A stretch of 64,000 bases of DNA from NCBI GenBank assembly GCA_965221835.1, contig OZ244916.1, forward strand, positions 329,947-393,946, in the 5' to 3' direction. Below are positions 1 to 26,758 of this stretch, piece after piece (within the stretch, counting starts at the first letter, position 1; each line of letters begins with the position of its first letter). The notes beneath the pieces are model-generated. The model saw nothing but the letters and a program-made list of their open reading frames with translations. It was not told the DNA's origin and searched no databases. The stretch comes from Gammaproteobacteria bacterium (GTDB lineage: Bacteria > Pseudomonadota > Gammaproteobacteria > Tethybacterales > Persebacteraceae). Position numbers and translations under genes: made by a program.

Positions 1-990
1 ATGAATATAACCATGATAAGCACGGAAAAAATTAGGATTAGAGAATGAACTGAATCTTTCAATCAGTTCAACGGCGATATGGTCCATATACACGGTATAT
101 CCGTCTCTGTTCGTTGTATGCGAATTCGCAACATCCTTAAACGAAAGCGTGTAGGTGAAATTATCCAATCGCACGGTAAAACCAAGATTAAAAAAGAAAG
201 GGGTAAGGTCAAAACTTTCGTTTTCAAATCGTGATGTATCCGGCTCGCAAGATTCAAACACACAAGGCGGAAGATATCGATCTCCAATGACGGGATTAAT
301 CGGCAAAGGCGGTGCGTCCAAAAACGAAGAGAGAGGGGGTTGTGGAATCAGAGTTTCGACAAAGGAATGCGGAGTTCCTTCTAATTCTCGTGTAACGCCC
401 ACTTGCCTCCATAACACCGAACGAAAAACCCTCGCCAATCTTGCATGTTCATCACTTCGCACGGTTTGCGTGACTCCCAAAATATCCGTGTAAATTACTG
501 TAAAACTATAAACATCGCCTTCGTCATAACCGTCGCCGGTATGCCCGATATTGACGGTGACATACGGCAGTTCTCCCTCCCGCCGAATACCCGCAATTTG
601 TACCGAAACACCGCTTACCGTTAATGTATTCGAGCCATAAATACGCAAATCGGCGGTGATATGGTCGCAACCCGATATATCTATAAAAGTACTAATCTGC
701 CTAAAAGTCAAAAAACGGGAATTCGGATGTCCAACATCTATTCCCGCAAAATTTTCTCGGATAACTTCGCCGGTGTGAATATCGGTTTGCTGACATCGCC
801 AATAATATTCGCCTCCTGCTCCCGCAACAATTCCCTCGTCAATTTCGGGGGACGGAAATACAACCGAAACCCGTTGCGAATCGTAATCCAAAGTAAGGTC
901 TACTGCAATATCCCCCGTAAATTGTGCAACCGCATTCCCCGCCCCGCAAAGTGCGAAAGCAGTTGCCAAAATTCTCCACAAAACTCTCAT
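1..990 (-). CDS. Partial CDS: N-terminal ~330 aa of a second giant repeat-adhesin paralog; the gene runs off the left edge of the window
   Basis: Manual reverse-complement translation from the ATG at 990 down to position 1 is open with no stops. It reads MRVLWRILATAFALCGAGNAVAQ... (signal peptide). It aligns block by block with the N-terminus of the 3653-aa protein at 37577 (YYWRC / YFWRC, GCDHI / KCDHI, GIRREGELPYVTVNIGHTGDGYDEGDVYSFTVIYTD vs GVRREGNPPHVTVNIDHIGDGYTEGDVYSFNVVYTD, ESCEPD vs ESCETE, YMDHIAVE vs YLDHFAVR). The ORF track omits it because no stop lies inside the window. Confidence 0.6.
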   Translation of the reverse strand, partial: MRVLWRILATAFALCGAGNAVAQFTGDIAVDLTLDYDSQRVSVVFPSPEIDEGIVAGAGGEYYWRCQQTDIHTGEVIRENFAGIDVGHPNSRFLTFRQISTFIDISGCDHITADLRIYGSNTLTVSGVSVQIAGIRREGELPYVTVNIGHTGDGYDEGDVYSFTVIYTDILGVTQTVRSDEHARLARVFRSVLWRQVGVTRELEGTPHSFVETLIPQPPLSSFLDAPPLPINPVIGDRYLPPCVFESCEPDTSRFENESFDLTPFFFNLGFTVRLDNFTYTLSFKDVANSHTTNRDGYTVYMDHIAVELIERFSSFSNPNFFRAYHGYIH

Positions 991-1029
991 GGGCGGAATT
1001 ATAACAAAGAATTGACAAATTAAACGGAA

Positions 1030-1420
1030 TTTTGTATAGTTATGCACGATTCGGCGGCGAAAAATGACGGCGGGGCGAGAATGGAATCGGGCGGCGGCGG
1101 AATTCCGCAAAAAAACCGCGAAATTCCGCGAAAAACCCCCCGTCATTCCCGCGAAAGCGGGAATCCATTATAGGCGATTAATTTTAGAATTCCCGCGCGT
1201 TTTTTCATAAAAAACAGCGTGAACTCGGGGATTTGTCGGCGAAAATGGATTCCCGCTTTCGCGGGAATGACAGCGGGGAAGGCGGGATTTTGTCGGCAAG
1301 AATCGGACGGCGGCGGACGGCGAAAATGACGGGCGGCGGGGGAGATTCCGATTTACATCGGAATGGTAAAAAATGACGGCGCGGCGGACGGGCGAGAATC
1401 GGGCGGCGGCGGGAAGGCGG
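1030..1420. repeat. NIME-type repeat array (RS units flanked by dRS3 ATTCCC-N8-GGGAAT inverted repeats)
   Basis: dRS3 instances attcccgcgaaagcgggaat (~1144) and attcccgctttcgcgggaat (~1249). The RS unit ...ataggcgattaattttagaattcccgcgcgttttttcat... recurs at 16570, 17160 and 48690. The palindromic cattccgatgtaaatcggaatg motif recurs as well. Confidence 0.6.
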
Positions 1421-1422
1421 GA

Positions 1423-2868
1423 TTAGAAACGATGTACGGCTTCCAGATGGAATCTGGCGTTGTTGCCGAATTCGGCGGTTTTTCGCCATTGAAATCCGGC
1501 GGAGGGGCGGATTGTCCAGCGGTTAATCCGCAAAACGCTTTCCAGATTTAGCGAGTTGTTTGTTTCGCTCTCGCCTTTGTCAAAACGGGATTGCAGATGA
1601 TAAACCGGCGATATTTCCCAAATGCCGCCCGTCAAGTTTGCGGACAGGGAAAGATTGTAATCGGCGGTTTCGCCCGCAACGAATTCCGAAAATGCCGCCG
1701 TCCACAACTCGCCTTTGTATTCGCCGCCCGATGAATAATGAAATTCGCCGAATTCGCCGTTTGCGTTTGTTTGTCCGCCGGTGTAGTACAAATGCCAATT
1801 GTCTTTGCGGAAATCCATCCGCCCGCCCGCATTTGCGAAATAGCCGATTTCGTCTACGGAATAGCCGATATCGGGCGTGAAATTAAATAGCGAAAAATCG
1901 CCGCCGGACAAAAGCATCGCCGCCGCCCCGACAACCGCAATTCCCGCCCCGATGGCAGCACCGCCGCCTGAACTGCCCGAACTGCCGCCGCCCGAACTGC
2001 CGCTGTCATCGCCCGCATTTGCGGAATTGGCGGAATTGGCGGAATTTTCGGAATTGACGGAATTGGCGGAATTGGCGGGGGTTGTCGCACAACTCGCAGT
2101 CGCCGGGTCGCAAGAATCCAACGCTTGCGCAACATCGTTTGTTTCTTGATAGTTTGCGTCAAGATGAAACTCGCCGGCATTCGGGTCGGCTTCGCCGACT
2201 CTGCCCGTGTTTTGTGCGAACGCCAAAACTCCGCTTGAATCACGATAAACGAAAACGGTTGCCAATGTATTCTTAAAACGCGAACTTAAGTCGGTGCGGG
2301 GACCGGAGATGAAAAAGCGGTCGCCCGCCTCCATCGTCCGCCGATTACCGGCGTAACCGAACATAAACAAACCCGTATTTGAATCAACCGCTTTCGTATA
2401 GGGCAACTCGCCGCCTATGGTCGTATCGTCGGGGTTGACTCTTCTTAAAATGGCGGCTGCCGCATGATAAGTATGCAAACCGGTTAAATGCGCCACACTT
2501 CCGGCAAAAGAAAAAGCGGAAACGCTCGCAACGATGGCGGTTAGCGGGTCGCTAAAAATGATTTGTCCGCCGGGTTGGGGGCGAGTAGTCGCAACTGTCA
2601 AAGTCGTGGTCTCTACAACTACCGATATGGTATCGGGTCTTCCGTCCCCGTCTATATCTACATTTACATATCTATTGCCTTGACGCAATGTCGTGCGGGT
2701 GGTGATTGTAATAATTCGGTCGCTAATGCCTGGTACATTGATGACAACCGTCGGTCTTTTCCAAACTTGTGCAACTTCCGATTCTTGTGCGGATGCGGAA
2801 GTCGCAAATCCCGCCGCCAAAACGGCAACGGCGAAAAGACGGAAAATAGCGGTTTTTATGATTTTCAT
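1423..2868 (-). CDS. Secreted surface/outer-membrane protein, paralog A: signal peptide, low-complexity (ANS)n and (GSS)n tracts, C-terminal ~160-aa domain ending ...EAVHRF
   Basis: ORF 1423..2928. The likely true start is MKIIKTAIFRLFAVAVLAAGFATSASA-QE (signal peptide). A hydrophobic Gly/Ala-rich segment (AIGAGIAVVGAAAMLL) precedes the C-terminal domain. That domain is shared with the 811-aa protein at 61539..63848 (GQTNxxGxFGxxHYxSG...ELWTAAFSE..AG.TADY.LSLSA.L.GGIW..SPVY...NRWTI.PSAGF.W........RF.). The aromatic C-terminal residue is typical of OM beta-barrel proteins. Confidence 0.6.
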   Translation of the reverse strand: MKIIKTAIFRLFAVAVLAAGFATSASAQESEVAQVWKRPTVVINVPGISDRIITITTRTTLRQGNRYVNVDIDGDGRPDTISVVVETTTLTVATTRPQPGGQIIFSDPLTAIVASVSAFSFAGSVAHLTGLHTYHAAAAILRRVNPDDTTIGGELPYTKAVDSNTGLFMFGYAGNRRTMEAGDRFFISGPRTDLSSRFKNTLATVFVYRDSSGVLAFAQNTGRVGEADPNAGEFHLDANYQETNDVAQALDSCDPATASCATTPANSANSVNSENSANSANSANAGDDSGSSGGGSSGSSGGGAAIGAGIAVVGAAAMLLSGGDFSLFNFTPDIGYSVDEIGYFANAGGRMDFRKDNWHLYYTGGQTNANGEFGEFHYSSGGEYKGELWTAAFSEFVAGETADYNLSLSANLTGGIWEISPVYHLQSRFDKGESETNNSLNLESVLRINRWTIRPSAGFQWRKTAEFGNNARFHLEAVHRF

Positions 2869-2937
2869 AATACTCTCCTGCGTGTGTGTCGTAAAACGGT
2901 ATTGTATCAGAAAACGCCGAAATGTCAACCCGGCGCA

Positions 2938-4275
2938 TCAGATGTCCAGCAAAAATTTTCGTTCCCAAGCGGTGACGACATGGCGGTAGTTTTCCAGTTC
3001 GGTGCGTTTGCATGCCACATACAAATCCACGAAACGATTGCCGAGGCGTTCGCGCAACATTTTGGAACCGCGCATTGCTTCCAGCGATTCTTCCAGCGTT
3101 AGGGGAATTCCGCGCGCCATTTCCCACGCCGCTACGGTAACCGGGGCGGTCGGTGCGATTTTGTTTTTGACGCCCATAAATCCGGCGAGTAAGGAACCCG
3201 CCACCGCCAAATACGGATTTGCATCCGAACCGCAAACGCGATTTTCCACACGCATCGCCGCCGGTGCACCGGTTTCCGGTACGCGCAATCCCACCGTGCG
3301 ATTGTTCGCGCCCCAATGATTGTTGGTATTTGGCCACGGTACATTAATGCGGCGAAACGAATTGACATTCGGTACCAGCATCGCCATAATTTCGGGCAAA
3401 TGCCGCTGCAATCCGCCCAAATAATGTTTGAACATCTGACTCATTCCGCCGTCCCGTCCGGCAAATAAGTTGTCGCCGCCGCCCCGTGCGACAACGCTTT
3501 GGTGAATATGCATTGAACTGCCGGGTTGTCCCTCCACCGGTTTCGCCATAAAAGTAGCGACCATTCCGTGTCGCACCGCCGCCTCGCGTACGCATCGTTT
3601 GAACATCATCACTTGGTCGGTCATCGCCAAGGCGTCGCCGTGCTTGAAATTGATTTCAAACTGCGCAACGCCTTCTTCGTGCGTCAATGTGTCGACCGCC
3701 AGCGATTGCGCTTCGGCAAAACGGTAAATGTCGTTAATGACCGGCTCAAATTCGTTTAAGGCATCTATGCTGAACGGTTGGCTGGAAAACTCCGGGCGAC
3801 CGGTGCGACCAACCGGCGGACGCAAGGGATTGTCGGGATTGTTGTCACGGCTGGCGAGATAAAACTCCAACTCCGGTGCGACAATCGGACGCCAGCCGTT
3901 GCGATGAAAAAAACGAATGACTCGCTTGAGAATACTGCGCGGTGCATAGCGAATAAGCGCGCCTTTTTCGCTGATTCCATCGCAAATAATCTGCCCCGTC
4001 GGTTCCGTCGCCCACGGCACCAAAAAACATCCTTCCAGCCCGGCACGCAACTCCATATCGCCGTCCGTATCATCCAAAAAATCTTCCTGTTCGCCCCAAT
4101 CGCCGGTGACGGTTTGCGCCAAGGCGGATTCGGGCATCCGCACCGAAGATTGAAGGAATTTTTCGCACGGGATAATCTTGCCGCGCGGCACTCCCGCCAA
4201 ATCGGGAATGAAAATTTCGACTTCGGTAATGGAATGATTCCGCAGCCAGTTTTTAACTTCGTTATCCAACGACAT
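2938..4275 (-). CDS. Glutamine synthetase family protein (GlnA type III / gamma-glutamyl-polyamine synthetase-like)
   Basis: 445-aa ORF with GS catalytic-domain hallmarks (GDWGEQ, ...SSMHIHQS..., NRxxxxR-type C-terminal motifs). The exact subfamily was not resolved. Confidence 0.65.
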   Translation of the reverse strand: MSLDNEVKNWLRNHSITEVEIFIPDLAGVPRGKIIPCEKFLQSSVRMPESALAQTVTGDWGEQEDFLDDTDGDMELRAGLEGCFLVPWATEPTGQIICDGISEKGALIRYAPRSILKRVIRFFHRNGWRPIVAPELEFYLASRDNNPDNPLRPPVGRTGRPEFSSQPFSIDALNEFEPVINDIYRFAEAQSLAVDTLTHEEGVAQFEINFKHGDALAMTDQVMMFKRCVREAAVRHGMVATFMAKPVEGQPGSSMHIHQSVVARGGGDNLFAGRDGGMSQMFKHYLGGLQRHLPEIMAMLVPNVNSFRRINVPWPNTNNHWGANNRTVGLRVPETGAPAAMRVENRVCGSDANPYLAVAGSLLAGFMGVKNKIAPTAPVTVAAWEMARGIPLTLEESLEAMRGSKMLRERLGNRFVDLYVACKRTELENYRHVVTAWERKFLLDI

Positions 4276-4321
4276 ATCGCCTCGTTCCCTATTTTAGCAA
4301 AAATATGGCAATATTAATAAA

Positions 4322-4675
4322 ATGTCATACAACGAAACAAAAATGGAAACCGAAATACCCGAAATACCCGCAACAGCGGAACCCGAAACGGCGGAAAACA
4401 CCGCGCAAACCGCCAAATATCGCCTAACCGGCGATGTGCAAAACATCGGATTTCGCCACTATCTCGCAAAAACGGCAGAAGATCTGCAAATACGCGGCTG
4501 GGCAAAAAACGAAAGCGACGGCAGTTTAATCGTTTTGCTGTGCGCCGAAGAATCCGCCATCGCGCAAATGCTCCCGCATCTTTTGCAAGGACCGGTCGGT
4601 GCCGCCGTGAACAATATGATAGAACTTTTGGTTGAAGAAGACGACATTCCGCCCGAAAACTTTGATATCCGCTAA
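4322..4675 (+). CDS. acyP: Acylphosphatase with an acidic ~30-aa N-terminal extension
   Basis: LTGDVQNIGFRHYLAKTAEDLQIRGWAKNESDGSLIVLL matches the acylphosphatase signatures (V.G.VQGV.FR ... G.V.N..DGSV). Confidence 0.6.
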   Translation: MSYNETKMETEIPEIPATAEPETAENTAQTAKYRLTGDVQNIGFRHYLAKTAEDLQIRGWAKNESDGSLIVLLCAEESAIAQMLPHLLQGPVGAAVNNMIELLVEEDDIPPENFDIR

Positions 4676-4703
4676 TGCGTTCGCGCCAATTTTGGCGTAA
4701 AAA

Positions 4704-5939
4704 CTATACCAATCCTTCAAACATTTGCACGCAAACTTTTTCGCCGGCGGCAACCGCCCCGCGCGATTCTTCCAAAACAATAAAACAATTTGCGCGCGTC
4801 ATGGACGACAAAATGCCGGACCCCTGGTCGCCGGTCGGCGACACTTCATAACCGCCGCCCGCCGCCGGACGCAAAACTCCGCGCTGATATTCTTCGCGCC
4901 CCGCCGATTTTTTGAACGCGCACAAAGCGACCGCTTCCAGCATCGGCGGCGGTGAATATGCTTTTCGCCCGGCGCGTTTCCACAATGCGGCTTGCACAAA
5001 TTGATAAAAACACACCATCACCGAAACCGGATTGCCGGGCAATCCGAAAAAATCCGCCTCGCCGAGTTTGCCGAACGCCAGCGGACGACCGGGACGCATT
5101 GCCACTTTCCAAAACACGACTTCGCCGCGTTCCGCCAGAACCGGACGAATAAAATCCGCCTCGCCGACAGACGCCCCGCCGCTGGCGATAACGACATCCG
5201 CGTTTTTTGTTGCCGCATCCATTGCCGCCGCCAACATTTCCGGCGAATCGCGCACCACGCCCAAATCCAAACCGTCCGCCCCCATCCGCGCCAACATCGC
5301 AAAAATCGCATGGCGATTGGAATCGTACACTTCCCCCGGTGCCAGCGAATCGCCGGGCGATTTCAATTCGTCACCGGTGGAAAAATAAGCGACTCGCACG
5401 CGCCGATAAACCGCGGTTTCTGTTATTCCTAACGAACCCAAAAGACCGATTTCCGCCGGGGCGCAAAATGTCCCCGCCGCCAATGCGATTTCGCCGCACC
5501 GCAAATCTTCTCCCGCCAATCGGATGTGCGTTCCTGTGCGGCGAACGGCGGGCGCGATTTCTGCGATTCCGTCTTTTTCGCCGCACGATTCTTCTTGCGG
5601 AACGACAATATCCGCACCTGCCGGTACGCGCGCACCGGTCATAATGCGGACGCATTCGCCGCTTGCAATCGCGCAATCAGAAGGCGCACCGGCAAAGGCG
5701 CGTCCCGCAATGCGCAACGAAACATTTTTGTCGGCGGACAAATCGGCAATGCGACAAGCATAACCGTCCATCGCCGAGTTGTCAAAACCCGGTACATTAA
5801 ACGGTGCGGCAATATCTTCCGCCAGAACGCGCCCCAAAACATCGCGCAACGGCGCGCGCGTTTTTGCCGCAACCGGCACAATGCGCGACAAAATTAATTC
5901 GCGCGCTTCCCGCACCGATTTCCATTTTTCGTTTGTCAT
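4704..5939 (-). CDS. moeA: Molybdopterin molybdotransferase MoeA
   Basis: ORF 4704..6023, with the probable start at MTNEKW. It carries MoeA motifs (...SGGASVGEADF..., GLPGNPVSVMV). Confidence 0.8.
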   Translation of the reverse strand: MTNEKWKSVREARELILSRIVPVAAKTRAPLRDVLGRVLAEDIAAPFNVPGFDNSAMDGYACRIADLSADKNVSLRIAGRAFAGAPSDCAIASGECVRIMTGARVPAGADIVVPQEESCGEKDGIAEIAPAVRRTGTHIRLAGEDLRCGEIALAAGTFCAPAEIGLLGSLGITETAVYRRVRVAYFSTGDELKSPGDSLAPGEVYDSNRHAIFAMLARMGADGLDLGVVRDSPEMLAAAMDAATKNADVVIASGGASVGEADFIRPVLAERGEVVFWKVAMRPGRPLAFGKLGEADFFGLPGNPVSVMVCFYQFVQAALWKRAGRKAYSPPPMLEAVALCAFKKSAGREEYQRGVLRPAAGGGYEVSPTGDQGSGILSSMTRANCFIVLEESRGAVAAGEKVCVQMFEGLV

Positions 5940-6034
5940 TTGTTTCCTCCGCCGTGCGGCGATAAGCGATAAATTTGAATTGTAAAATAAAAACGCGTTC
6001 TGCGAAAAAACCGCCTTTCGCAAAACCGATTATT

Positions 6035-6568
6035 TTATTTCGGAAAAGACGATTTTGCAGAATTTTCCGAATTTTTTTCGGCAACTTTTTCTGCCAGAAA
6101 TGTTTCCGCCGTTTTGCCGTCCGGGTGAATAAAACGAACGATAACTTTTGTGCGTCCGAGATAAATCCATGTTGCAATGTGTATTAAAACCGATGCCACA
6201 ACGAAAATAGTTTGCGGCAAATCAAAAAGCGGCAATTCGGTAATCGTTTCATTTTTGGAAATAAAAATTAAAAGAATTATTCCAATAACGAAAAAAATAA
6301 TATGAACTGCGGCAAAAAATCGCACGGCGCGGCGCGCCCGGTTTTTCATCCGATATAAATTGATTCCGCAAAGGCACATTATCATATACCAAAAAAATGT
6401 CGCCGCCCAAAATGCAGGATATTCCGCGCCATATTCGCGATAAGACGGCAATGCACTTTCCGCAATTTGCACAAGCGGATACAACGCATAATACGCCGCC
6501 ACAACGACCACGCCGGGCATCCGCCCGCCCGCGATTTTTCGCCATAAATCGGCGGCAACTTTTAGCAA
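6035..6568 (-). CDS. Hypothetical integral membrane protein
   Basis: 177-aa ORF with several hydrophobic helices. No recognisable family. Confidence 0.4.
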   Translation of the reverse strand: MLKVAADLWRKIAGGRMPGVVVVAAYYALYPLVQIAESALPSYREYGAEYPAFWAATFFWYMIMCLCGINLYRMKNRARRAVRFFAAVHIIFFVIGIILLIFISKNETITELPLFDLPQTIFVVASVLIHIATWIYLGRTKVIVRFIHPDGKTAETFLAEKVAEKNSENSAKSSFPK

Positions 6569-6705
6569 CTTTTCCGCATTCCGAATGCGCTCCGTGTTTG
6601 AAAATAAAATTTATTATAACCGACAAATCGCGCCGCAAAAAAATTGCAAAAAATCGTATTTTTTCGCATTTGTGATAAAATGCGCGGCATCGGAGGATTA
6701 TAAAA

Positions 6706-8376
6706 ATGAAAAAACGCAGCGACATTATTACCGCCGGAAACGCGCGCGCACCAAATCGCGCATTGTTGCGGGCGGTCGGATTTAACGACGACGATTTTGA
6801 CAAACCGATTATCGGAATCGCCAACGGACATTCCACAATTACGCCTTGCAATTCCGGTCTTGATGCGCTGGCACACGCCGCCGAAAAAGCCCTTCGCGAT
6901 GCGGGCACAATGCCGCAAATGTTCGGCACAATTACAATTTCAGACGCCATTTCAATGGGGACGCCGGGAATGAAATATTCGCTGATTTCGCGCGAAGTAA
7001 TCGCCGATGCGATAGACACCGTCGTCAACGGGCAATGTATGGACGGCGTTATTGTTGTCGGCGGTTGCGACAAAAACATGCCCGGCGGAATGATGGCACT
7101 CGCACGAGTCAATATCCCGGGAATTTTCGTTTATGGCGGCACCATAAAACCGGGGCATTACAAAGGCGAAGATTTAACAGTCGTCAGCGTTTTTGAAGCA
7201 GTCGGCAAACACGCCGCCGGAAAATTGTCGGCAGAAGATTTTTTGCAAATTGAAAAAAAGGCGTGTCCGGGTGCCGGTTCATGCGGCGGAATGTTTACCG
7301 CCAACACGATGTCTTCGGCGTTTGAAGCGATGGGAATGTCGCTGCCTTATTCGTCCACAATGGCGGCAACAGACGCCGAAATAATTGATAGTGCCGCCGA
7401 CTCGGCACGCGCATTAGCCACCGCCATAAAACTGCAAATTCGCCCGCGCGACATTATGACAAAAGCGGCGTTTTTGAACGCCATCGCGGTGATTATGGCA
7501 GTCGGCGGTTCCACCAACGCGGTTTTGCATTTAATGGCAATCGCCCGCGAAGCCGAAGTTAATTTGCATTTGGACGATTTTGAAACGGTGCGGCGACGCA
7601 CGCCCGTTTTGTGCGACTTAAAACCTTCCGGACGATTTGTAACAGTAGATTTGCATCGTGCCGGCGGCATTCCGCAGGTGATGAAAATTTTGCTCAATCT
7701 CGGACTTTTGGAAGGCGAATGCATCGGCATTACCGGCAAAACATTGCGCGAAACTCTGGCGGATGTGCCCGATTTGCCGCCGTCCGCTGCGGCGAAAGAA
7801 GTCATTCGCCCCCCCGACAATCCGCTGTACGCGGACGGTCATTTGTCGGTTTTGTATGGCAATCTCGCCGAAGAAGGCAGCGTTGCAAAAATTTCCGGCA
7901 TCGCAAACCGCGTACATAACGGTCCGGCACGCGTTTTCAACTCCGAAGAAGAAGCACTCGCCGCGATTTTGGACGACAAAATCAAACCCGGCGATGTGCT
8001 GATTATCCGCTACGAAGGCCCGAAAGGCGGACCGGGCATGCGCGAAATGCTGGCACCAACTTCGGCAATTATCGGCAAAGGACTCGGCGATTCGGTCGGA
8101 CTCGTCACAGACGGCAGATTTTCGGGCGGCACTTACGGACTCGTTGTGGGACATGTCACGCCCGAAGCGGCAATCGGCGGCAATATCGCGCTGGTACACG
8201 AAGGCGATTCCATCACCATAGATGCCGAAACACGCAAACTAACTCTGCATATCAGCGACACCGAATTGGCGCACCGCCGCAGCGAATGGCAACCGCCGCA
8301 ACAGAATTTATCCGGCGTTCAGGCGAAATACGCGAAACTTGTCGGCGGCGCAAGCGAAGGCGCAGTAACTTGGTAA
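6706..8376 (+). CDS. ilvD: Dihydroxy-acid dehydratase (IlvD/EDD family)
   Basis: 556 aa, N-terminal ...[10 protein letters not shown]..., CDKNMPG motif, [12 protein letters not shown] ggagga sits 8 nt upstream of the ATG. Confidence 0.85.
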
Positions 8377-8385
8377 AATCGCGCG

Positions 8386-8739
8386 TCAATGCCGGTTCGC
8401 TTTGCGCGTCAATTCGGACATCGCAATGCAATCCACAATCAGCCAGCAAACGGATGCAAGACACAGCGCGCCGCCGCCCGCAAACCAGATTTCGCTTTTC
8501 AGATTGATAATTCCCGTTTGCGGCAACACCGACAAATCGCCGCCCGCCGCCGACAACATCGTCAAAAACGGCGTCAGCAAATGCACATAACCAACCGCCA
8601 AACATACGACACCGACAAAAAACAGCGCCGTCATCCACATACCCGAAACAAAAAATCCCAGATAAAAACGGTGCAACCCGACGACGCCGAAAACCAGCCC
8701 CGCCAACGCAAAACAATACGCCTTAAATAAATTTTTCAT
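8386..8739 (-). CDS. TM2-domain small membrane protein
   Basis: 117 aa with the GLHRFYLG motif and two hydrophobic helices. Confidence 0.45.
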   Translation of the reverse strand: MKNLFKAYCFALAGLVFGVVGLHRFYLGFFVSGMWMTALFFVGVVCLAVGYVHLLTPFLTMLSAAGGDLSVLPQTGIINLKSEIWFAGGGALCLASVCWLIVDCIAMSELTRKANRH

Positions 8740-8806
8740 ATAACGAATTAAACTTTATCACATCCGCCCCGTTTCGGGCGCGGTGTATTATAATTGTCGC
8801 AAGAAT

Positions 8807-9946
8807 ATGCCGGACACACCGCCGACTCCCGCCATTCTCGCTTTTGCGGACGGTATCGTATTTTCCGGCACCGCCGCCGGTCATCCGGGTATCGCCGTCG
8901 GCGAGGCGGTTTTTAATACCGCCATTTGCGGCTATCAAGAAATCGTCAGCGACCCTTCCTACTATCGCCAAATCGTCAATTTTACGCATCCGCACATCGG
9001 CAATACGGGCGCAACTTCGCTTGACGATGAATGCGCGGATTTCGCCGCCGCCGGTATTGTCGCACGGCGAATCGCCTCCTATCCGCATTGGCGCGCGCAA
9101 TGCACTTTGGACGATTATCTGCGGGCGCGACAAATTCCCGCCATCGCCGGAATAGACACGCGCGCAGTTACTTGCAAATTGCGAGACGGCGGCGCAATTG
9201 CCGCTTGCATCGCACCGGGCAATGACGAAAAAACGCGCCAAAATGCCATCGCCGCCGCCGCCGCTTTCGGCGGATTAACCGGCGCAATGTTGGCAGCAGA
9301 ATCCGGACAATCGCGCGCAACACAATGGCGCGAAGGTTTATGGCGCGCGCGCGAAAATGATTATGCGGCGGGCGGCGGACGGCGCGTTGTCGCGGTTTTA
9401 GATTGCGGAGTCAAAAGCGCGATTTTGCGCCAACTCGCCGCACGCGGTTGCGATGTGCGAGTATTGCAATACGACACCGATTTTGCAACAATACAAAAAT
9501 GCAAACCGGACGGCGTAATATTTTCCAACGGACCGGGCGACCCGGAACCGTGCGCCGCCGCAATTGCATTGGCGCGCGAATTAATGCACCAAAAAACGCC
9601 GCTGTTGGGAATTTGTCTTGGGCATCAAATTATCGCCGCCGCATTAGGGGCGAAAATTGTCAAAATGAAATTCGGACACCACGGCGCAAATCATCCGGTG
9701 CGAGACGAAGAAACCGGACGCGTTTTAATCACCAGCCAAAATCACGGTTTTGCGGCAGATGCGGCGAGTTTACCGGCGGACACGCGCATCACGCACACTT
9801 CTTTGTTTGACGGTTCGCTACAAGGAATCGCATGCGATTCGCCGCCGATTATGACTTTTCAGGGACATCCCGAAGCCAGCCCCGGCCCGCACGATGCCGC
9901 GATTTTATTTGACCGTTTTATCAATTTAATGGATGAAAGAAAATAA
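8807..9946 (+). CDS. carA: Carbamoyl-phosphate synthase small (glutaminase) subunit
   Basis: GATase motif ICLGHQ and CarA N-terminal homology. Start taken as the second ATG (8807), downstream of a tattataat -10 element. Confidence 0.9.
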   Translation: MPDTPPTPAILAFADGIVFSGTAAGHPGIAVGEAVFNTAICGYQEIVSDPSYYRQIVNFTHPHIGNTGATSLDDECADFAAAGIVARRIASYPHWRAQCTLDDYLRARQIPAIAGIDTRAVTCKLRDGGAIAACIAPGNDEKTRQNAIAAAAAFGGLTGAMLAAESGQSRATQWREGLWRARENDYAAGGGRRVVAVLDCGVKSAILRQLAARGCDVRVLQYDTDFATIQKCKPDGVIFSNGPGDPEPCAAAIALARELMHQKTPLLGICLGHQIIAAALGAKIVKMKFGHHGANHPVRDEETGRVLITSQNHGFAADAASLPADTRITHTSLFDGSLQGIACDSPPIMTFQGHPEASPGPHDAAILFDRFINLMDERK

Positions 9947-9948
9947 TC

Positions 9949-10254
9949 ATGCCATTTGTAATTGATAACCAAGATCTTTTTTTAGAACATCTCGCGAATC
10001 AAGGAGTTGGCGATAACGACACGGTTCACGGCGCAACACCGAGATCGTATGTCGCCTATCTTAAGTCGGCGGCAAAAATTCTCAACTGCGACATATCCGC
10101 GGATTTGTTTCCAAATTTAAATCGGAATGAATTAGAGGCGGTTTACGACCGTATAAAACGCAATCAACAGCACGCGCAATACGCCGCAGGAACGCGAAGG
10201 AATGCCGTTTCCGCAATGCGACATTATTTTGAGTTTTGCGGGGGAATTCTCTAA
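9949..10254 (+). CDS. Small hypothetical ORF wedged between carA and carB, low GC
   Basis: 101-aa ORF. It starts 2 nt after the carA stop and its TAA overlaps the carB ATG (TAATG). GC is visibly lower than the flanks. No recognisable domain. Confidence 0.35.
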
Positions 10255-13200
10255 TGCCAAAACGAAACGACATAAACAGCGTTCTCGTTCTCGGTGCGGG
10301 ACCGATTATTATCGGGCAGGCGTGTGAGTTTGATTATTCGGGAACGCAAGCGTGTCGTGCGTTGCGCGAGGAGGGAATTCGCGTTGTTTTGTTAAATTCC
10401 AATCCGGCGACAATTATGACCGACCCCGAAGTTGCCGATGCAACTTATATTGAACCGGTGGATGCGGATACGGCGGCGGCGATTATTGCGGAAGAAAAAG
10501 TAGACGCGGTTTTGCCGACAATGGGCGGACAAACCGCATTGAATTGCGCGATGGAACTTTTTCGGCGCGGCGTTTTATTTCCGCAAAATCCGCATGGCGC
10601 AAAACTCATCGGCGCAGGCGCAAACAGCATTCGTGCCGCCGAAGACCGCGGCGAATTCAAACGCGCGATGGAAGAAATCGGGCTGCAATGCGCGCCTTCG
10701 GCACTCGTTTCCGACATTGCGGATGCCGAACGGCGGGCGGGCGAAATCGGTTTTCCGATTATCTTGCGCCCTTCATTTACACTCGGCGGCGGCGGCGGCG
10801 GAGTCGCCTACAATCGCGAAGAATTTCTCGCGCTGGTCGCTCGCGCCCTCGCCGAATCGCCCTCCGGCGAAGTATTGCTGGAACGCTCCTTGCTGGGCTG
10901 GAAAGAGTTTGAAATGGAAGTCGTGCGCGATTCCGCCGACAATTGCATCATCATCTGTTCCATTGAAAATGTCGACCCGATGGGCGTGCATACCGGCGAT
11001 TCGGTCACCGTCGCCCCGGCGCAAACCCTGACCGACAAAGAATATCAGCGAATGCGCGATGCCTCATGCGCAGTATTGCGAAAAATCGGCGTAGATACCG
11101 GCGGCGCAAATGTGCAATTCGCCGTCAATCCCGAAGACGGCGAAATGGCGGTAATAGAAATGAATCCGCGCGTTTCGCGTTCTTCGGCACTCGCCTCAAA
11201 AGCAACCGGTTTTCCGATTGCAAAAGTCGCCGCAAAACTCGCCATCGGCTATACCTTGCCCGAAATCGCCAACGACATTACCGGCGGCACACCCGCATCG
11301 TTTGAACCGTCCATAGATTATATTGTCGTCAAAATACCGCGATTTGATTTTGCCAAATTCGCGCCCGCCGCCGATACGCTCACAACACAAATGCGTTCGG
11401 TCGGCGAAGTCATGGCAATCGGCGGCACTTTCGCCGAGGCGTTGCAAAAAGCATTGCGCGGGCTGGAAATCGGCGCGAACGGATTTGAAACGATATTGCA
11501 TTATGCACAATTAAACGAAGACGAAATACGCGAACGACTTTCAACCCCCCATTCCATGCGGCTGTTCGCCGTTGCCGATGCGATGGCGGGAAGCGAAATC
11601 GCAAAACGCGAACCGTTCAAAATGGAAGAAATTTACAAACTCACGCGCATCAATCCGCGCTTTTTGGACGAAATGCGCGAAATCGTTTTAATGGCGGCAC
11701 AAATCGCGCAAACCCGCCTCGCCGATACCGCCGCGAACGAAATGCACGAATGGAAACGACTCGGTTTTTCGGATGCGCAAATCGCCCGTTTGTCCGACAC
11801 CGGCGACTCGCCGCACACAGCCGAAACCGCGCGAAAAAAACGGCGCGCGTTAAACATTCATCCTGTATATCGCCGCATAGACACTTGCGCGGGCGAGTTT
11901 GCAACCGAAACCGCGTATTTATATTCCACTTATTTTTACGACCGCGCGCATCCCGCATGCGAGTTGCGCCCGCAATCCGGCGACAATAAAATTCTCATTC
12001 TCGGCGGCGGTCCAAACCGAATCGGGCAAGGCGTGGAGTTTGATTATTGTTGCATTCACGGCGTCACCGCATTGCGACAATCCGGTTTTGAAACATTAAT
12101 GATCAATTGCAATCCGGAAACGGTGTCCACCGATTATGACATTGCCGACCGGCTGTTTTTTGAACCGCTTACCGCCGAAGATGTGCTGGAAGTTTGTCGC
12201 CGCGAAATGCCGCGCGGCGTTGTCGTACAATTCGGCGGACAAACGCCGCTTTCCATCGCACGCGAACTGGAAAAAGAAGGCGCGCCGATTATCGGCACTT
12301 CCGTAGACGCAATAGATTGCGCCGAATCGCGCCGCCGCTTTCAACAATTAATTAAAAAATGCGGATTGCGACAACCCGAAAACGCGATTGTCAATTTTTC
12401 CGGCGATATTCAATCCGACAATTCCGCCGTCCCGCAAAAAACCGAAGAAGCGGCGCAAGCGGCGGCAAATATCGGCTATCCGTTGGTCGCCCGTCCGAGT
12501 TATGTACTCGGCGGCAAAGCGATGCGAATCGTACACAACGAAGACGAGTTGCGCGCCTATTTTTCCGCGCCGTGGTTGCAAGATTTTGACGGCGATATTT
12601 TGTTAGACAAATTTCTCGTCGGCGCAGTAGAAGTAGATGCGGACGCAATTCGCGATTCGGCGGGCGCATGCGTCATCGCCGGCGTGATGGAACACATAGA
12701 ACACGCCGGCATACATTCCGGCGATTCGGCGTGTTGTCTACCGCCGCATTCTCTGCCGGCGGCAATTGTCGACGAAATTAAAAGACAAACAACCGCGCTC
12801 GCAAACGCGCTCGGTGCAGTCGGAATGATGAACGTACAATTCGCCGTCAGCCAAAACGAAGTGTATGTTTTGGAAGCAAATCCGCGCGCCTCGCGCACCG
12901 CACCTTTCGTTTCCAAAGCGACCGGAATGCCGGTTGCCAAAATCGCGGCGCGGGCAATGGCGGGAATGTCGTTGCGCGCACAAAACATTCGCGAAATACC
13001 GCCGCCCGCCCGTTTTGCGGTAAAAGAAGCGGTTTTTCCGTTTGACAAATTTTCGGATGCCGATGTACTCCTCGGTCCAGAAATGAAATCTACCGGTGAG
13101 ACAATGGGAATCGCCGAAAACTTTCCGCGCGCGTTTTTGCAAGCACAAGAAGCCATTCAGCCGATGCCGCGCACCGGCACGGCGTTTATCAGCGTCCCCG

Positions 13201-13577
13201 ACGACGACAAACCCGGCGCATTAGAAGCGGCGCGACAATTCCAAAAACTCGGTTTCAATATCATCGCAACAGCAGGCAGCGCGCGCTATTTTTGCGAACA
13301 CGGTGTTGCCGCCGCAGTCGTGAACAAAGTCAAAGAAGGGCGCCCGCACATCGTGGACGAAATTGTCAGCGGGCGAGTGCATATCGTCATCAATACCGAA
13401 ACCAAATCGCCGCAAAGCCGCGCCGATTCTTTTTCCATCCGCCGCGCCGCGTTAATGCGCAAAGTGATATACTATACGACAGTCAGTGCCGCACAAGCGG
13501 CGGCAGCAGCATTAGGCGCAAAACGAGGAAAACCGAAATCTCTGCAAAACTGGCTAAAAAACGATACAAAAAACTAA
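10254..13577 (+). CDS. carB: Carbamoyl-phosphate synthase large subunit
   Basis: Starts [33 protein letters not shown]. Duplicated ATP-grasp halves and an MGS-like C-terminal domain. Confidence 0.95.
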
Positions 13578-13578
13578 A

Positions 13579-14064
13579 ATGGCAACACCGATTACCAAAG
13601 AAGGAAAAACGCGGCTGGAAACCGAACTCCAGAAACTGCGCACCGTAGAACGCCCCGCCATTGTCGCCGCTATCGCCGAAGCGAGGGCGCACGGCGATTT
13701 GTCCGAAAACGCCGAATATCATTCCGCCAAAGAAAAACAAGGAATGATTGAAGCGCGAATCAAAGAACTGGAAGCAGTTTTAGGTTCCGCCGAAGTCATT
13801 GACCCCGCCTCCGAAGGCGGCGGCGGACGATGCATTTTCGGCGCATTTGTCGCGCTTGAAGACGAAGACGGCAACATGTTCCGCTACCGGATTGTCGGCG
13901 AATACGAAGCCGACATTAACGCCGGTTTGTTGTCATCCGCTTCACCGTTAGGACGCGCCCTTCTCGGCAAAATAAAAGGCGATAGCGTGGAAGTCCGCGC
14001 ACCCGGCGGCGTTCGCGAATATCTAATTGCCGCCGTCGCCTATACCCAATTTGAATCCGAATGA
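13579..14064 (+). CDS. greA: Transcription elongation factor GreA
   Basis: MATPITKEGKTRLETELQKL...GDLSENAEYHSAKEKQ... is the classic GreA N-terminus. Confidence 0.9.
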   Translation: MATPITKEGKTRLETELQKLRTVERPAIVAAIAEARAHGDLSENAEYHSAKEKQGMIEARIKELEAVLGSAEVIDPASEGGGGRCIFGAFVALEDEDGNMFRYRIVGEYEADINAGLLSSASPLGRALLGKIKGDSVEVRAPGGVREYLIAAVAYTQFESE

Positions 14065-15482
14065 ATCCGCGCGCGTTCGATTCGCCGCGCTGGGATGTCC
14101 GCGCCGCCGCACTCAAAGCCGCCGATTATGCGGCGTTTGATGCCGTCTTGCAAATCGGCGGCAGCAACACACCTTTCGCAAAAGAAATCGCCGCCGCCGC
14201 CAAAAAACGCGGCGATTCTTCGTCCCCGACAATATGCACTTTGCGCGGCGGCACCGCCGTCATTAAAATCAGTTGGCGCAAAGCCGATTCCGTTTTTTCG
14301 CATCTGGAATCATTACGCCGTCATTTCGCCCCGCTGGCAAAAGCGCGAAAAATCGCAGTAGACATTCGCGATTCGGCGGCGACCGAATCTGCAGTTTTTG
14401 CCATTCTCGCCGGGGCAGCGGTCTTTGCCGGCGGTCCCGATTCCACACGCAAACCCCCGCGTCTGACTTTCGCCGGTTGCAATCGCAAAATCGCCAAAAT
14501 AGCAGCAGAATCGGCAACGGCAAATATTCTCGCACGCACATTGCAACGAATGCCGCCCAACGAATTGACCGTCCCCGAATTTGCGCGAATCGCCCGCACT
14601 CTCGCAAAACAAAATCCGCGCATGTCCTCCACAATTTGGAACGCAACCGAATTGCAAAAAATGAATGCCGGTTTAATCTGCGCAGTCGGACGGGCAGCAG
14701 AAAATCCGCCATGCATCGTCCGCATTCGCTATTCGGGAAATCCAAAATCGCGGCGAATTGTCTTTGTCGGCAAAGGCGTTTGTTATGATACCGGCGGCGT
14801 CAACATCAAACCCGCCCGTCACATGCGGGGAATGAAAAAAGATATGTCGGGGGCGGCGTCCGCATTGGCGGCAGTTTTGGCGGCGGCGGCGTTACAATTG
14901 CCGGTCAATGCGGACGCCTATCTCGCCCTCGCCGAAAATGCCGCCGGTCCGCAGTCATATCGCCCGGACGATGTCGTCACATCAATGTCCGGCAAAACCG
15001 TAGAAGTCGTCCACAGCGATGCCGAAGGACGAATGATTTTGGCAGATGCTATGACACTCGCCGCCCGCAAAACACCGGATGCCGATTTTTTCGTCTCATT
15101 CGCAACACTCACCGGCACAATGCACATCGCCCTCGGCGAAAGAATCAGCGGCGTTTTCGCCTCCGCCCCCTATCTGCTAAAAAAAGCACAAATCGCCGCC
15201 GCCGCAAGCGGAGAAAGATTATGCGCATTCCCGCTGGCAAACGATTATGCAACCGCCCTAAAAAGCGATGTCGCCGACATAAAACAATGTGCCGAAGAAG
15301 GTGCGGCAGACCACATTATGGCGGCACTTTTTTTGCGTGATTTTCTGCCGCCCGATTCGCCGTGGCTGCATTTAGATTTGTCAGCGGCAAGTTGCAAAGG
15401 CGGATTAGGCGTCGCCCCCGGACCAGAAACAGGTTTCGGTGCGGTCTGGGCGTTGGAGTTATTAAAACGGGCAAAACCATGA
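14061..15482 (+). CDS. pepA: M17 family leucyl/cytosol aminopeptidase
   Basis: Active-site NTDAEGR-like motif (VHSDAEGRMILADA) and a GKGVCYDTGG region. The ATGA overlaps the greA stop. Confidence 0.8.
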   Translation: MNPRAFDSPRWDVRAAALKAADYAAFDAVLQIGGSNTPFAKEIAAAAKKRGDSSSPTICTLRGGTAVIKISWRKADSVFSHLESLRRHFAPLAKARKIAVDIRDSAATESAVFAILAGAAVFAGGPDSTRKPPRLTFAGCNRKIAKIAAESATANILARTLQRMPPNELTVPEFARIARTLAKQNPRMSSTIWNATELQKMNAGLICAVGRAAENPPCIVRIRYSGNPKSRRIVFVGKGVCYDTGGVNIKPARHMRGMKKDMSGAASALAAVLAAAALQLPVNADAYLALAENAAGPQSYRPDDVVTSMSGKTVEVVHSDAEGRMILADAMTLAARKTPDADFFVSFATLTGTMHIALGERISGVFASAPYLLKKAQIAAAASGERLCAFPLANDYATALKSDVADIKQCAEEGAADHIMAALFLRDFLPPDSPWLHLDLSAASCKGGLGVAPGPETGFGAVWALELLKRAKP

Positions 15483-16219
15483 ACCAAACTCTGCCGCCGA
15501 TATGCGGCGACGGTTTTTTGGCAACACTATCCCGCCCCCGAGTCGCCGCAAGTTTTTGGCACCCGCCGCAACCACAAAAATTCGCACAAATGTGCCGGGA
15601 CGGTCTGCAAATCGCCGAAATACGCTTGGATCTCGCACAATCGCAAACCGAAGAATCGGCACGCACTCTATTATCCGCCGTTTCCGCCCTGCCGTCAATT
15701 CTCACAATCCGCCCGCCCTTTGAAGGCGGCAAATTCGCCGCAGACGAAAATAAACGCCGCAATTTGTTTTACCGCCTTTTGCCTTTCGCCTCCGCCGCAG
15801 ACATTGAGTTATCAGCAGAAATCCGCCCCGATATTGTCGCCGCCGCAAAAAAATCCGGTGCCGCAACAATCATATCGCAACACAACTTTAACGGCGTAGA
15901 ATCGCCGGCAGCCATAAACACAGCAGCAAATCAGGCATTCGCCGAAGGTGCAGATGTCTTCAAATATGCAGCAACCATAAAAAACCAAAACGAATTCGCC
16001 GCCCTAAAATCATTCTTGCAACAATGGACGCAAAAACCCGAAAATCCGCCCGTCATCGTCATCGGAATGGGCACCGCCGAAATCGCCCAAAAAACCCGCC
16101 GTGATTTTCCCGCCCTCGGTTCACGCATCACTTTCGCCGCCGCAAACGGAATTCCGACCGCCCCGGGACAACTAACAATCAAAGACGCCGCCGCCGCCGC
16201 CGCCCGATATTCACCATAA
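15479..16219 (+). CDS. aroD: 3-dehydroquinate dehydratase, type I
   Basis: IISQHNF (vs ISYHNF) and GADVFKYA (vs GADIVKIA) type-I DHQase motifs. The ATGA overlaps the pepA stop. Confidence 0.65.
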   Translation: MNQTLPPICGDGFLATLSRPRVAASFWHPPQPQKFAQMCRDGLQIAEIRLDLAQSQTEESARTLLSAVSALPSILTIRPPFEGGKFAADENKRRNLFYRLLPFASAADIELSAEIRPDIVAAAKKSGAATIISQHNFNGVESPAAINTAANQAFAEGADVFKYAATIKNQNEFAALKSFLQQWTQKPENPPVIVIGMGTAEIAQKTRRDFPALGSRITFAAANGIPTAPGQLTIKDAAAAAARYSP

Positions 16220-16224
16220 AACCC

Positions 16225-17400
16225 CGCCGCCCCGCCGATTCCCGCCTTTCCGCCGCCCGTCATTTTTCGCCTCCCCGACTCGCCCCTGACATTTGTCGGG
16301 GGCGAAACAAGTTCGGCGGAGTTTACTCCGCCCCCCGCAATTTCCGCCTTTCCGCCGCCGTCCGATTCCCGCCTTCCGCCGCCCGTCATTTTCAATTTTT
16401 ACCATTCCGATGTAAATCGGAATCTCCCCCGCCGCCCGATTCCCGCCTTTCCGCCGCCGCCCGATTCTCGCCGACAAAATCCCGCCTCCCCGCCGTCATT
16501 CCCGCGAAAGCGGGAATCCATTTTCACCGACAAATCCCCGCGTTCACGCCGTTTTTTAAGAAAAAAACGCGCGGGAATTCTAAAATTAATCGCCTATAAT
16601 GGATTCCCGCTTTCGCGGGAATGACGGGGGGGGGGGGGGCGCGGAATTTCGCGGTTTTTTTGCGGAATTCCGCCGCCCCCTCATTCCATTCCCGCGAACG
16701 CGGGAATCTGTCTGCGTCGCAAAGCGGCGGTAATTTGCATCGCAAAGCGATGCGTACAGATTCCCGCGTTCGCGGGAATGGAAGGTTCTTTTTCCCGCCG
16801 CCCCTCCGCCGGATTTCAATGGCGAAAAACCGCCGAATTCGGCAACAACGCCAGATTCCATCTGGAAGCCGTACATCGTTTCTAATCATTAATTCCCCGC
16901 CCCCGACATTTGTCGGGGCGAAATCCGCCGCAGCAGTTCACTGCCGCAAACCCCGGCATTTCCCGCCTTCCCGCCGCCCGTCATTTTTTACCATTCCGAT
17001 GTAAATCGGAATATCCCCCGCCGCCCGTCATTCTCGCCGTCCGCCGCCGTCCGATTCTTGCCGACAAAATCCCGCCCTCCCGCCGTCATTTTCGCGAAAG
17101 CGGGAATCCATTTTCGCCGACAAATTCCCGCGTTCACGCTGTTTTTTATGAAAAAACGCGCGGGAATTCTAAAATTAATCGCCTATAATGGATTCCCGCG
17201 TTCGCGGGAATGACGGGGGGTTTTTCGCGGAATTTCGCGTTTTTTTGCGGAATTCCGCCGCGTTCGCCGGAATGGAAAACTTTATTTTTCGGTCGTTTTA
17301 CGGAAAAATGGAAAACTTTATTTTCGGCGGAATTCCTCCGCATTCCGATGAAAATCGGAATCTCCGAATCGCAAACTAAATCCCGATTGCGATTCCTTCA
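16225..17400. repeat. Large NIME array (multiple RS units and dRS3 repeats); contains a G14 tract and an orphan gene fragment
   Basis: dRS3 copies at ~16499, 16604, 16688, 16760 and 17192. The palindromes ccccgacatttgtcgggggcg and cattccgatgtaaatcggaatc recur. Units are shared with 1030-1420, 48640-48830 and 61340-61535. Confidence 0.65.
16794..16877 (+). pseudogene. Orphan 3'-terminal fragment of the paralog-A surface protein (encodes ...RPSAGFQWRKTAEFGNNARFHLEAVHRF*), inverted relative to the full gene
   Basis: About 100 bp (16782-16880) are the exact reverse complement of 1420-1518, the last codons plus stop of the CDS at 1423..2868. Identity ends a few nt past the stop and ~20 nt into the coding sequence. 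It is embedded in the NIME array. Confidence 0.6.
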
Positions 17401-17513
17401 CGGCGGGTGCAATTCATCGTCGACAAAACGCACAATATGCAGACCGCTGACAAGCGGGCGGATGTTGATTTTTTGGAAAATCGGCGAAAAAAATCTTCCG
17501 CCCGAAAAAAAAA

Positions 17514-20352: not shown

Positions 20353-20378
20353 AATATTCGCTGGTTTATAAAATAAAT

Positions 20379-20451
20379 TAGGCCGTCAGGGACTCGAACC
20401 CTGGACCAACGGATTAAAAGTCCGCTGCTCTACCAACTGAGCTAACGACCC
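20379..20451 (-). tRNA. tRNA-Lys (anticodon UUU)
   Basis: The reverse complement gggtcgttagctcagttggtagagcagcggacTTTtaatccgttggtccagggttcgagtccctgacggccta folds as a cloverleaf with D-loop, anticodon loop cuUUUaa and T-loop GGTTCGAGTCC. The acceptor stem has two G-U pairs and CCA is not encoded. Confidence 0.8.
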
Positions 20452-20522
20452 GCCGAAATTATACTACCGAAATCGCCTTTTTTTTCGATTCGCGATTTCT
20501 TAATTTTTTGCCAAAAAAAATT

Positions 20523-25950: not shown

Positions 25951-26059
25951 AATCCCTTCTCGTGCCGCATTACGGTGCGAGAGAATCGGGGGAATTATTG
26001 CACGAGAAGAACGGGGCGGAATGAAAAACGACGGTTATGCCGCCCCGTTCGTTGGCGGT

Positions 26060-26677: not shown

Positions 26678-26758
26678 TGTCGTGTCTCCTGTCGGTTGTC
26701 TGATAAAAAAATATACCAACGCCATTATATCACTCTGTTTTTGTTTTACAATACGGCG

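Follow-up and report, generated by a model that had tools for sequence, protein, structure and literature searches.

Results

Two giant genes in inverted orientation

The stretch of DNA analysed here comprises 64,000 nucleotides of contig OZ244916.1 from a gammaproteobacterium of the Persebacteraceae and is referred to as the window. At its left edge, on the minus strand, it carries an open reading frame (ORF) with which a second giant autotransporter of the classical type (Va), about 2800-2900 amino acids (aa) long, probably begins; for this exact genome, that length is taken from the sequences of sibling strains. The first giant gene, encoding a protein of 3653 aa, lies further to the right. 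The two genes form inverted repeats: they point away from each other, the edge gene to the left and the big gene to the right, and their starts are 36.6 kb apart (Table 1).

An earlier note, made from the letters of the window alone, had described an open frame of 330 codons with a signal peptide on the minus strand, and this was confirmed on the sequence. From the ATG at position 990, all 330 codons are open as far as position 1. The N-terminus MRVLWRILATAFALCGAGNAVA, followed by QF after the predicted cleavage site, combines a basic n-region, a hydrophobic core and an AXA-type cleavage site. Read as a Sec-dependent signal peptide, it consists of MRVLWR, ILATAFALCGAG and NAVA ahead of the first Q of the mature protein, and its hydropathy peaks at residues 4-17; this call was made by inspection by eye and a hydropathy calculation, with no dedicated predictor. 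The likeness to the paralog and to every other allele starts exactly at the start of the signal peptide.

Immediately upstream of both giant genes, amid diverged DNA, the identical sequence TATAATTCCGCCCATGAGA is present (991-1006 on the minus strand, 37561-37576 on the plus strand). The TGnTATAAT of both genes reads as an extended -10 element located 7 nt from the start codon. A Shine-Dalgarno sequence was not found ahead of either ATG, and a generic promoter scan called no full -35/-10 pair at 991..1006. The position of the element suggests a short or absent leader, i.e. leaderless or near-leaderless transcripts, for both giant genes.

The sequence blocks that the earlier note had listed as common to the N-termini of both proteins are all present (YYWRC/YFWRC, GCDHI/KCDHI, GDGYxEGDVYSF, ESCE and YMDHIAV/YLDHFAV). 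Furthermore, a BLASTP alignment of the edge head with the first 500 aa of the 37577-48538 protein yielded 117/329 identities (36%, E-value 8e-53). A tblastn search over the window revealed no third copy of the head.

Table 1. Coordinates of the giant genes and associated features in the window.
Feature	Position	Strand	Remarks
Start codon and predicted Sec-type signal peptide of the second giant autotransporter gene	922..990	-	aa 1-23, MRVLWRILATAFALCGAGNAVAQ; hydrophobic core, cleavage site between AVA and Q
Truncated head domain, aa 24-330	1..921	-	runs off the window edge; 36% identical to the head of the paralog, E-value 8e-53
Core upstream element common to both paralogs	991..1006	-	TGnTATAAT, then TCCGCCC, then ATG
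Palindromic NIME-like repeat unit, 142 nt	1136..1277		two hairpins with the dRS3 consensus, 1145-1164 and 1249-1268; 69-nt arms, 77% complementary
Upstream neighbour, 481-aa secreted or outer-membrane-type protein	1423..2868	-	stays beside the edge-type head in both chromosomal arrangements
Segment between the inverted giant genes, ~36.6 kb	991..37576		apparently in both orientations among related strains
3653-aa paralog	37577..48538	+	signal peptide, head, neck, 24 Ig-like units, C-terminal autotransporter barrel; inverted relative to the edge gene
Translocator, C-terminal 400 aa (linker and PF03797 beta-barrel, ends in ESNLLF)	47336..48535	+	99% identical to the C-terminus of full-length edge-head alleles

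The edge gene continues to a C-terminal barrel in sibling strains

Sibling strains were reached via exact matches of neighbouring proteins in ENA metagenome assemblies. The six loci obtained in this way (L001-L006) share the gene order GS-like gene, 481-aa gene, giant gene. In three of them (L002, L004 and L005) the DNA is 99-100% identical to positions 1-990 of the window, and the heads of L004 and L005 are identical to the edge head in 330/330 residues of the protein. L011, which covers the same contig as L004, contains the edge-head gene at 653-9169 as 2838 codons without a stop. Its head is likewise 330/330 identical, and it is followed by a neck, 17 Ig-like units of about 100 aa and a C-terminal PF03797 barrel (47 bits versus a cut-off of 26) that ends in NLLF. 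The last 780 residues match the 3653-aa protein of the window in 772 positions. Another copy, P0001, was obtained from the exhaustive HMMER search described below. Once a false N-terminal extension of 59 residues, translated from the repeat array, is trimmed off, it comprises 2892 aa, and a single residue distinguishes its head from the edge head. The claim that a second giant paralog begins at the window edge is thus borne out by frames in sibling strains, which continue for 2838-2892 aa to a PF03797 barrel.

The giant proteins are type Va autotransporters with an Ig-like rod

In the 3653-aa protein, the head (aa 24 to about 330) is followed by a neck (about 330-560) and, from aa 560 to 3256, by 24 units that are each about 100 aa long. 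The units include nine double units of 219 aa, corresponding to a period of 657 nt in the DNA. The PF03797 barrel of this protein scores 45.7 bits versus a cut-off of 26. A C-terminal PF03797 barrel ending in an aromatic residue was found both in L011, which has the identical head, and in the window paralog.

One rod unit was modelled with AlphaFold2 using an alignment of 22 units, all from within the window, and a confident beta-sandwich was obtained (pLDDT, the predicted local distance difference test, 92). The Foldseek matches of this model in the PDB are Ig, PKD, FN3 and BIg domains with template modelling (TM) scores of 0.4-0.58 and E-values no better than 1e-3. They include the PKD domain of AAVR, PKD1 of PrtV, a collagenase PKD domain, the BIg unit of MpIBP and the extender of an RTX adhesin ('large adhesion protein'). 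In Pfam searches of the rod, the K319L-like PKD family PF22352 reached a summed E-value of 1e-11, and no single stretch passed. An Ig-like fold of the rod units is therefore supported by the model and its structural matches, and assignment to a specific family is not. Positions D29, N31 and D87 of the rod units are invariant; these Asp and Asn residues could bind Ca2+ between units.

Pfam searches of the 3653-aa protein gave no pertactin, PATR or autochaperone match and, over the full length, no RTX or HemolysinCabind match. A beta-helical passenger with an autochaperone, which is typical of type Va proteins though not universal among them, is absent, the passenger being built of Ig-like units. 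Also absent is the N-terminal barrel of type Ve proteins: the barrel is C-terminal, and the N-terminus consists of a signal peptide and then the head. Thus, the giant proteins are classical type Va autotransporters that have an Ig-like rod as passenger instead of a beta-helix.

Rods and anchors are near-identical and the heads diverge

P0001 and the 3653-aa protein were compared in sliding windows of 60 residues. Residues 1-360 are about 15-58% identical and residues 661-1020 37-80%, the early rod units differing in number, while residues 421-660 and 1021-2880 are at least 92% identical, with values of about 92-100% up to the C-terminus. The earlier note had taken the N-terminal domain as the conserved part that both proteins share. 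The comparison reverses this assessment: the N-terminal domain is the only strongly diverged part, with 36% identity as compared to about 92-100% over most of the remaining roughly 2400 residues.

The heads also differ between strains. The window locus shares 97-100% identity with L001 and L003 in the flanks. In the head, DNA identity is 75-90% over the first half and about 40% over the second, which is unalignable. The locus of the big gene in another strain (L007) has flanks of 97% identity and a head whose N-terminal part is 52% and whose C-terminal part is 93% identical in protein. L007 is a 6-kb contig of a metagenome-assembled genome (MAG) labelled Spirochaetia; the contig is probably mis-binned or the MAG mislabelled. 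In total, there are at least three head alleles at the edge locus and two at the other locus, and the alleles are mosaic. The ratio of nonsynonymous to synonymous substitution rates (dN/dS) of the head lies at 0.3-1.0, with saturation of dS in the regions of greatest difference between the alleles. As judged from these sequences, the head alleles are old and their constraint is relaxed.

The segment between the giant genes appears to occur in two orientations

The orientation of the segment between the giant genes was analyzed by means of the coordinates of the GS-like gene and the PhaB-like gene (window 60533-61276) in the same contigs. On ctg52286_133x, the two markers lie on opposite strands, 57 kb apart, which is the arrangement of the window. 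They are found on the same strand on ctg51932_432x (22.5 kb apart), ctg51956_105x (25.5 kb apart) and ctg132874_7.87x, corresponding to the inverted arrangement, and each of these three contigs has an edge-head gene between the markers. The stretch on ctg132874 was read whole (L004/L011) and gives the order GS, 481-aa gene, edge-head gene, SoxB, with a SoxB flank that is 97.8% identical to positions 48621-50749 of the window. This joining of an edge-type head to the downstream flank of the other locus fits homologous recombination within the rods. The spacing of the markers on ctg51932_432x is 22,552 nt, as compared to 22,700 nt predicted for an inversion with the crossover inside the rods. 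Recombination between the inverted rods thus appears to invert the 36.6-kb segment, and it would also explain the near identity of the rods and their differing number of units (17 versus 24).

A second, shorter rearrangement was observed on the ENA contig ctg52280_66x (L006/L009), where the 15.4-kb segment that spans ~1420 to ~16798 in the window has the opposite orientation. The crossover falls within a stretch of 93 nt (31 codons) in which the 3' end of the 481-aa gene is repeated in inverted orientation with 90% identity; the inverted repeats involved, 1423-1515 and 16790-16882, adjoin arrays rich in dRS3. The contig of P0034, with a coverage of 1.38x, was considered as support for swapping of heads or promoters between the loci and was judged too unreliable. 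The ENA contig ctg52288_630x (3.22 Mb; L022/L023) contains the PhaCAB locus twice, at 0.33 and 1.83 Mb, and may represent two concatenated strains. In some strains (L010/L012, 16261-17007), the aminotransferase gene and phaC are separated by an inserted restriction gene of the MvaI/BcnI type.

The head is an orphan domain with four conserved cysteines

The edge head can be divided into an N-subdomain (aa ~24-185) with YYWRC, CDHI and HTGDGYDEGDVYSF, a middle part (aa ~186-250) consisting of a Pro-rich hypervariable stretch and a CxxxxC loop, and a C-subdomain with TYTLS and VYMDHIAV. Across the six alleles and the relatives, C-x-H-I, H-x-G-x-G-Y-x-E-G-D-V-Y and T-Y-T-L are invariant. The Y/F-L/M-D-H/N block is conserved, with an invariant D.

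The four Cys residues of the head are the only ones in the mature 2892-aa and 3653-aa proteins. They are located at positions 66, 108, 243 and 248 in the edge type and at 53, 96, 226 and 231 in the big type. All four recur in P0002, a distant relative, which supports the paired Cys that the earlier note had pointed out. Their conservation argues for two structural disulfides.

Searches for relatives of the head returned nothing in Pfam, NCBIfam or the PDB sequences, the latter searched with a six-allele profile. An exhaustive HMMER search over 1.84 billion representative proteins found P0001 and P0002 as the only relatives. P0002 (L008) is the distant one and stems from a gammaproteobacterial MAG from a sea cave (E-value 6e-12). 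The JGI metagenomes gave no match to the head. Word-index protein searches with the head and with the six head alleles were equally empty, which is uninformative with regard to rarity. The search with the head failed because short fragments represent the clusters of the giant proteins; that of the 3653-aa protein has a fragment of 137 aa as its representative in the 90%-identity database (P0027; clusters P0026/P0027). With the first 560 aa of the 3653-aa protein as query, only two near-identical fragments, P0033 and P0034, were retrieved. By these searches, the head is a domain of about 330-400 aa outside all described families.

A derivation of the head from two degenerate rod units was considered: hhalign aligned just 13 residues of the head to the rod profile, with a probability of 3%. 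The hidden Markov model (HMM) of the rod gave weak matches in the head of the big protein at aa 129-165 and 256-281 (E-values 0.1-0.5), and the idea stays a lead.

Repeats and neighbouring genes

The intergenic region of 432 nt upstream of the edge gene (991-1422) is a repeat array. In this array, the hairpins at 1145-1164 and 1249-1268 enclose a unit of 84 nt, and thus the arrangement known from neisserial intergenic mosaic elements (NIMEs), in which the 20-bp inverted repeat dRS3 flanks units of 50-150 bp, is present. The dRS3 consensus ATTCCCN8GGGAAT matches exactly 8 times in the 64-kb window, where 0.01 matches are expected. Two of the matches lie upstream of the edge gene (1145 and 1249), five between 16.5 and 17.2 kb (16498, 16603, 16688, 16760 and 17192) and one downstream of the big gene (48748). 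The region upstream of the 3653-aa gene has no dRS3 array and contains 62-nt repeats of another kind. Of the earlier proposal that NIME arrays separate both giant genes from their neighbours, the dRS3 repeats themselves are real and are found upstream of the edge gene and downstream of the big one, but the separation does not extend to the upstream side of the big gene.

In the latter region an ORF of 291 aa diverges from the big gene (window 36301-37268; L007 2430-3503) and has no family match. Three tandem repeats of about 62 nt surround its 5' end and, in L007, are read as NYYTVHA heptad repeats at the N-terminus. A 14-mer, GTTGTGCATACCGA, occurs together with its complement about 10 times in the 64 kb as a dispersed repeat.

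The arrays resemble the NIMEs of Neisseria in that a dRS3 of 20 nt brackets repeat units of about 85 nt in intergenic arrays, here at rearrangement breakpoints. The window differs from Neisseria in that the canonical DNA uptake sequence (DUS), GCCGTCTGAA, is present just once in 64 kb, with other DUS dialects occurring 0-2 times. The single canonical copy, ATGCCGTCTGAA, is located at about 36816-36827 in an inverted pair downstream of recG. The leucyl-tRNA synthetase (LeuRS) of the window scores 915 bits against PDB 6q89, which we take to be the N. gonorrhoeae enzyme, and 854 bits against the E. coli enzyme. Judged by its sequences, the organism is not Neisseria-like, the LeuRS comparison being that of a proteobacterium that is not close to Neisseria.

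The neighbouring genes are ordinary chromosomal ones (carAB, greA, ilvD, moeA, leuS, recG, soxBDA-like genes and phaCAB). Neither Pfam nor NCBIfam gave a match for the 481-aa protein encoded upstream of the edge gene. Its C-terminal ~190 aa are 50-55% identical to part of a Cys-rich 811-aa ORF at 61539-63974 (minus strand). This domain of about 190 aa, which is common to the 481-aa and 811-aa proteins, is preceded by a hydrophobic stretch, ends in AVHRF and is likewise without a Pfam or NCBIfam match; it may be an unrecognised outer-membrane anchor module. A low-complexity ANS/GSS tract of the 481-aa gene (window ~2001-2100) differs between strains.

Discussion

Overall, we consider it highly probable that the window contains the beginning of a second giant type Va autotransporter which carries an orphan, variable tip, and that the two paralogs, near-identical in their rods and anchors, apparently recombine with each other. 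From established type V biology, the barrel would be inserted into the outer membrane and the passenger threaded out from its C- to its N-terminus, with the Ig-like units folding one after another outside the cell. The head would emerge last, come to sit at the distal tip and make a specific contact there. Type Va proteins are anchored via the C-terminus, which places the head at the far end of the Ig-like rod. From this position, we infer that it serves as a contact or recognition module and that the rod is the extender, as in other giant adhesins; the adhesin or tip-binding role of the head is thus inferred from the architecture only. Recombination between the rods would keep them homogenised and reshuffle their length (17 versus 24 units), and each head would stay with its own promoter. 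Different heads on the same rod would provide one cell with two specificities or antigenic types, and the head alleles would diversify specificity or antigenic type across strains. The combination of rods evolving in concert with diverged tips marks the tip as the probable specificity determinant and defines constructs for structural and binding studies. The paralog pair can be regarded as a natural case in which rod and anchor evolve in concert and the tips are kept far apart.

Several observations weigh against this interpretation or parts of it. The dN/dS ratio is never clearly above 1, and diversifying (positive) selection is thus not proven in the head. Two of the head Cys residues are 42 residues apart, and a large disulfide loop is unfavourable for the export of an autotransporter. 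The AlphaFold model of the head, a prediction suggested in the earlier note and run here on an alignment of 4 sequences, is unusable with a pLDDT of 41, apart from indicating mostly beta secondary structure; its Foldseek matches are meaningless (best E-value 0.085, TM at most 0.19). The inversion rests on metagenome assemblies, in which an assembler crossing a near-identical repeat of about 7 kb could yield the same joins. Finally, an intact gene in the genome of the window is derived from strains with identical heads, the sequence at hand ending at position 1, and the copies of the giant gene in the related contigs L002 and L003 look broken.

The joins between edge head and SoxB in the three contigs might accordingly be assembly mis-joins via the near-identical rods, so that there would be no inversion and the paralogs would be alike through recent duplication. 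Rods that are 90-96% identical in DNA over several kb are a classic cause of wrong joins, and one of the three contigs has a coverage of just 7.9x. However, both arrangements are present at a coverage of at least 100x in the same sample (133x versus 105x and 432x), the inverted one was also found in a second sample, and the spacing agrees with the inversion model within 150 nt. The rod lengths differ between copies, which shows that the rods were not fully collapsed, and the independent inversion nearby occurred between shorter inverted repeats. Moreover, a recent duplication would not leave heads that are 36% identical with saturated dS. We therefore regard mis-joining as unlikely.

In our view it is decidedly improbable that the head at the end of the rod has a catalytic or toxic function, for instance as a Cys/His or metal-dependent hydrolase, rather than that of a binding domain. 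C108-x-H110, H150, E157, D159 and D303 are indeed invariant in all alleles and in the distant relative, and classical autotransporters often carry enzymes (PMC9289746). Nevertheless, the head matches no enzyme family or solved structure in Pfam, NCBIfam or the PDB, its four Cys are conserved as two pairs, which suggests disulfides over a nucleophile, its predicted secondary structure is nearly all beta and rod-like, and half of it is hypervariable between strains, which would be unusual for the scaffold of an active site.

That the edge ORF of this genome is a truncated remnant or pseudogene, with a single functional giant gene left, has very little probability: the sequence left of position 1 is not in view and L002 and L003 carry interrupted copies, but no stop interrupts the 330 codons, start, signal peptide and core promoter are all intact, DNA of 99-100% identity runs on into intact 2838-aa genes in L004/L005/L011, P0001 is intact, and the break in L002 lies in a contig of 6.7x coverage, that in L003 being a cluster of five small indels within about 100 nt that is typical of a consensus error. 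Given this cluster of small indels, phase variation was rejected as an explanation for the split L003 gene. For annotation, the edge ORF should be treated as a real gene, probably encoding about 2800-2900 aa.

Beyond the reading of two recombining type Va paralogs with variable tips, a more far-reaching picture can be put forward tentatively, although we would not ourselves expect it to hold in full. In this picture, the head would represent a novel recognition fold stabilised by disulfides, whose old mosaic alleles are maintained at two loci through balancing or diversifying selection in a strain-rich population. The inverted pair would act as a recombination device, flipping 36.6 kb, combining heads anew with rods of other length and preserving the identity of the rods. 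The organism may live in association with a host, which is a guess based solely on the multi-strain assemblies of high coverage. If true, classical autotransporters would have, in such a pair, an equivalent of the 'variable tip on constant stalk' principle of inverse autotransporters and RTX adhesins.

What makes the locus worth keeping in view is the unusual architecture of its type Va passenger, its orphan polymorphic tip and the evidence of recombination between the copies. Like the type Va adhesins AIDA-I, Ag43 and pertactin, the giant proteins have an N-terminal Sec signal peptide and consist of one polypeptide with a C-terminal PF03797 barrel that ends in an aromatic residue. The PF03797 barrel of these adhesins is 12-stranded, and their passenger is displayed from the outer membrane with the N-terminus outermost, as would be the case here. 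The difference lies in the passenger, which here is a chain of 17-24 beta-sandwich units of the Ig-like type that ends in an orphan head containing Cys, whereas the passengers of characterised type Va adhesins are described in reviews as beta-helical, with EstA as the only solved passenger that is not (PMC9289746).

With the type Ve proteins intimin, invasin and YeeJ, the giant proteins share long runs of Ig-like domains capped by a distinct tip that makes the contact, and export of type Ve proteins is thought to be driven by the sequential folding of the Ig-like domains (PMC6555100). The topology, however, is the opposite one, with a PF03797-type barrel at the C-terminus and the tip at the N-terminus, and Pfam searches of the giant protein found no intimin-type N-terminal barrel, LysM domain or lectin-like cap. 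The giant RTX adhesins exported by type I secretion systems (T1SS), such as SiiE, LapA and MpIBP, are similar in their length of thousands of residues, in their tandem beta-sandwich extenders of about 100 aa and in the possible binding of Ca2+ between units at conserved Asp/Asn residues, and they have their ligand-binding region at the distal end (PMC7493085, PMC6272769). In contrast to these adhesins, the giant proteins described here have no RTX repeats, C-terminal T1SS signal or N-terminal retention module and instead combine Sec export with a barrel anchor. A PF03797 barrel with 17-24 Ig-like domains and an orphan tip would thus be a further way of secreting an adhesin of the 'extender plus tip' design, the third besides those of inverse autotransporters and RTX adhesins.

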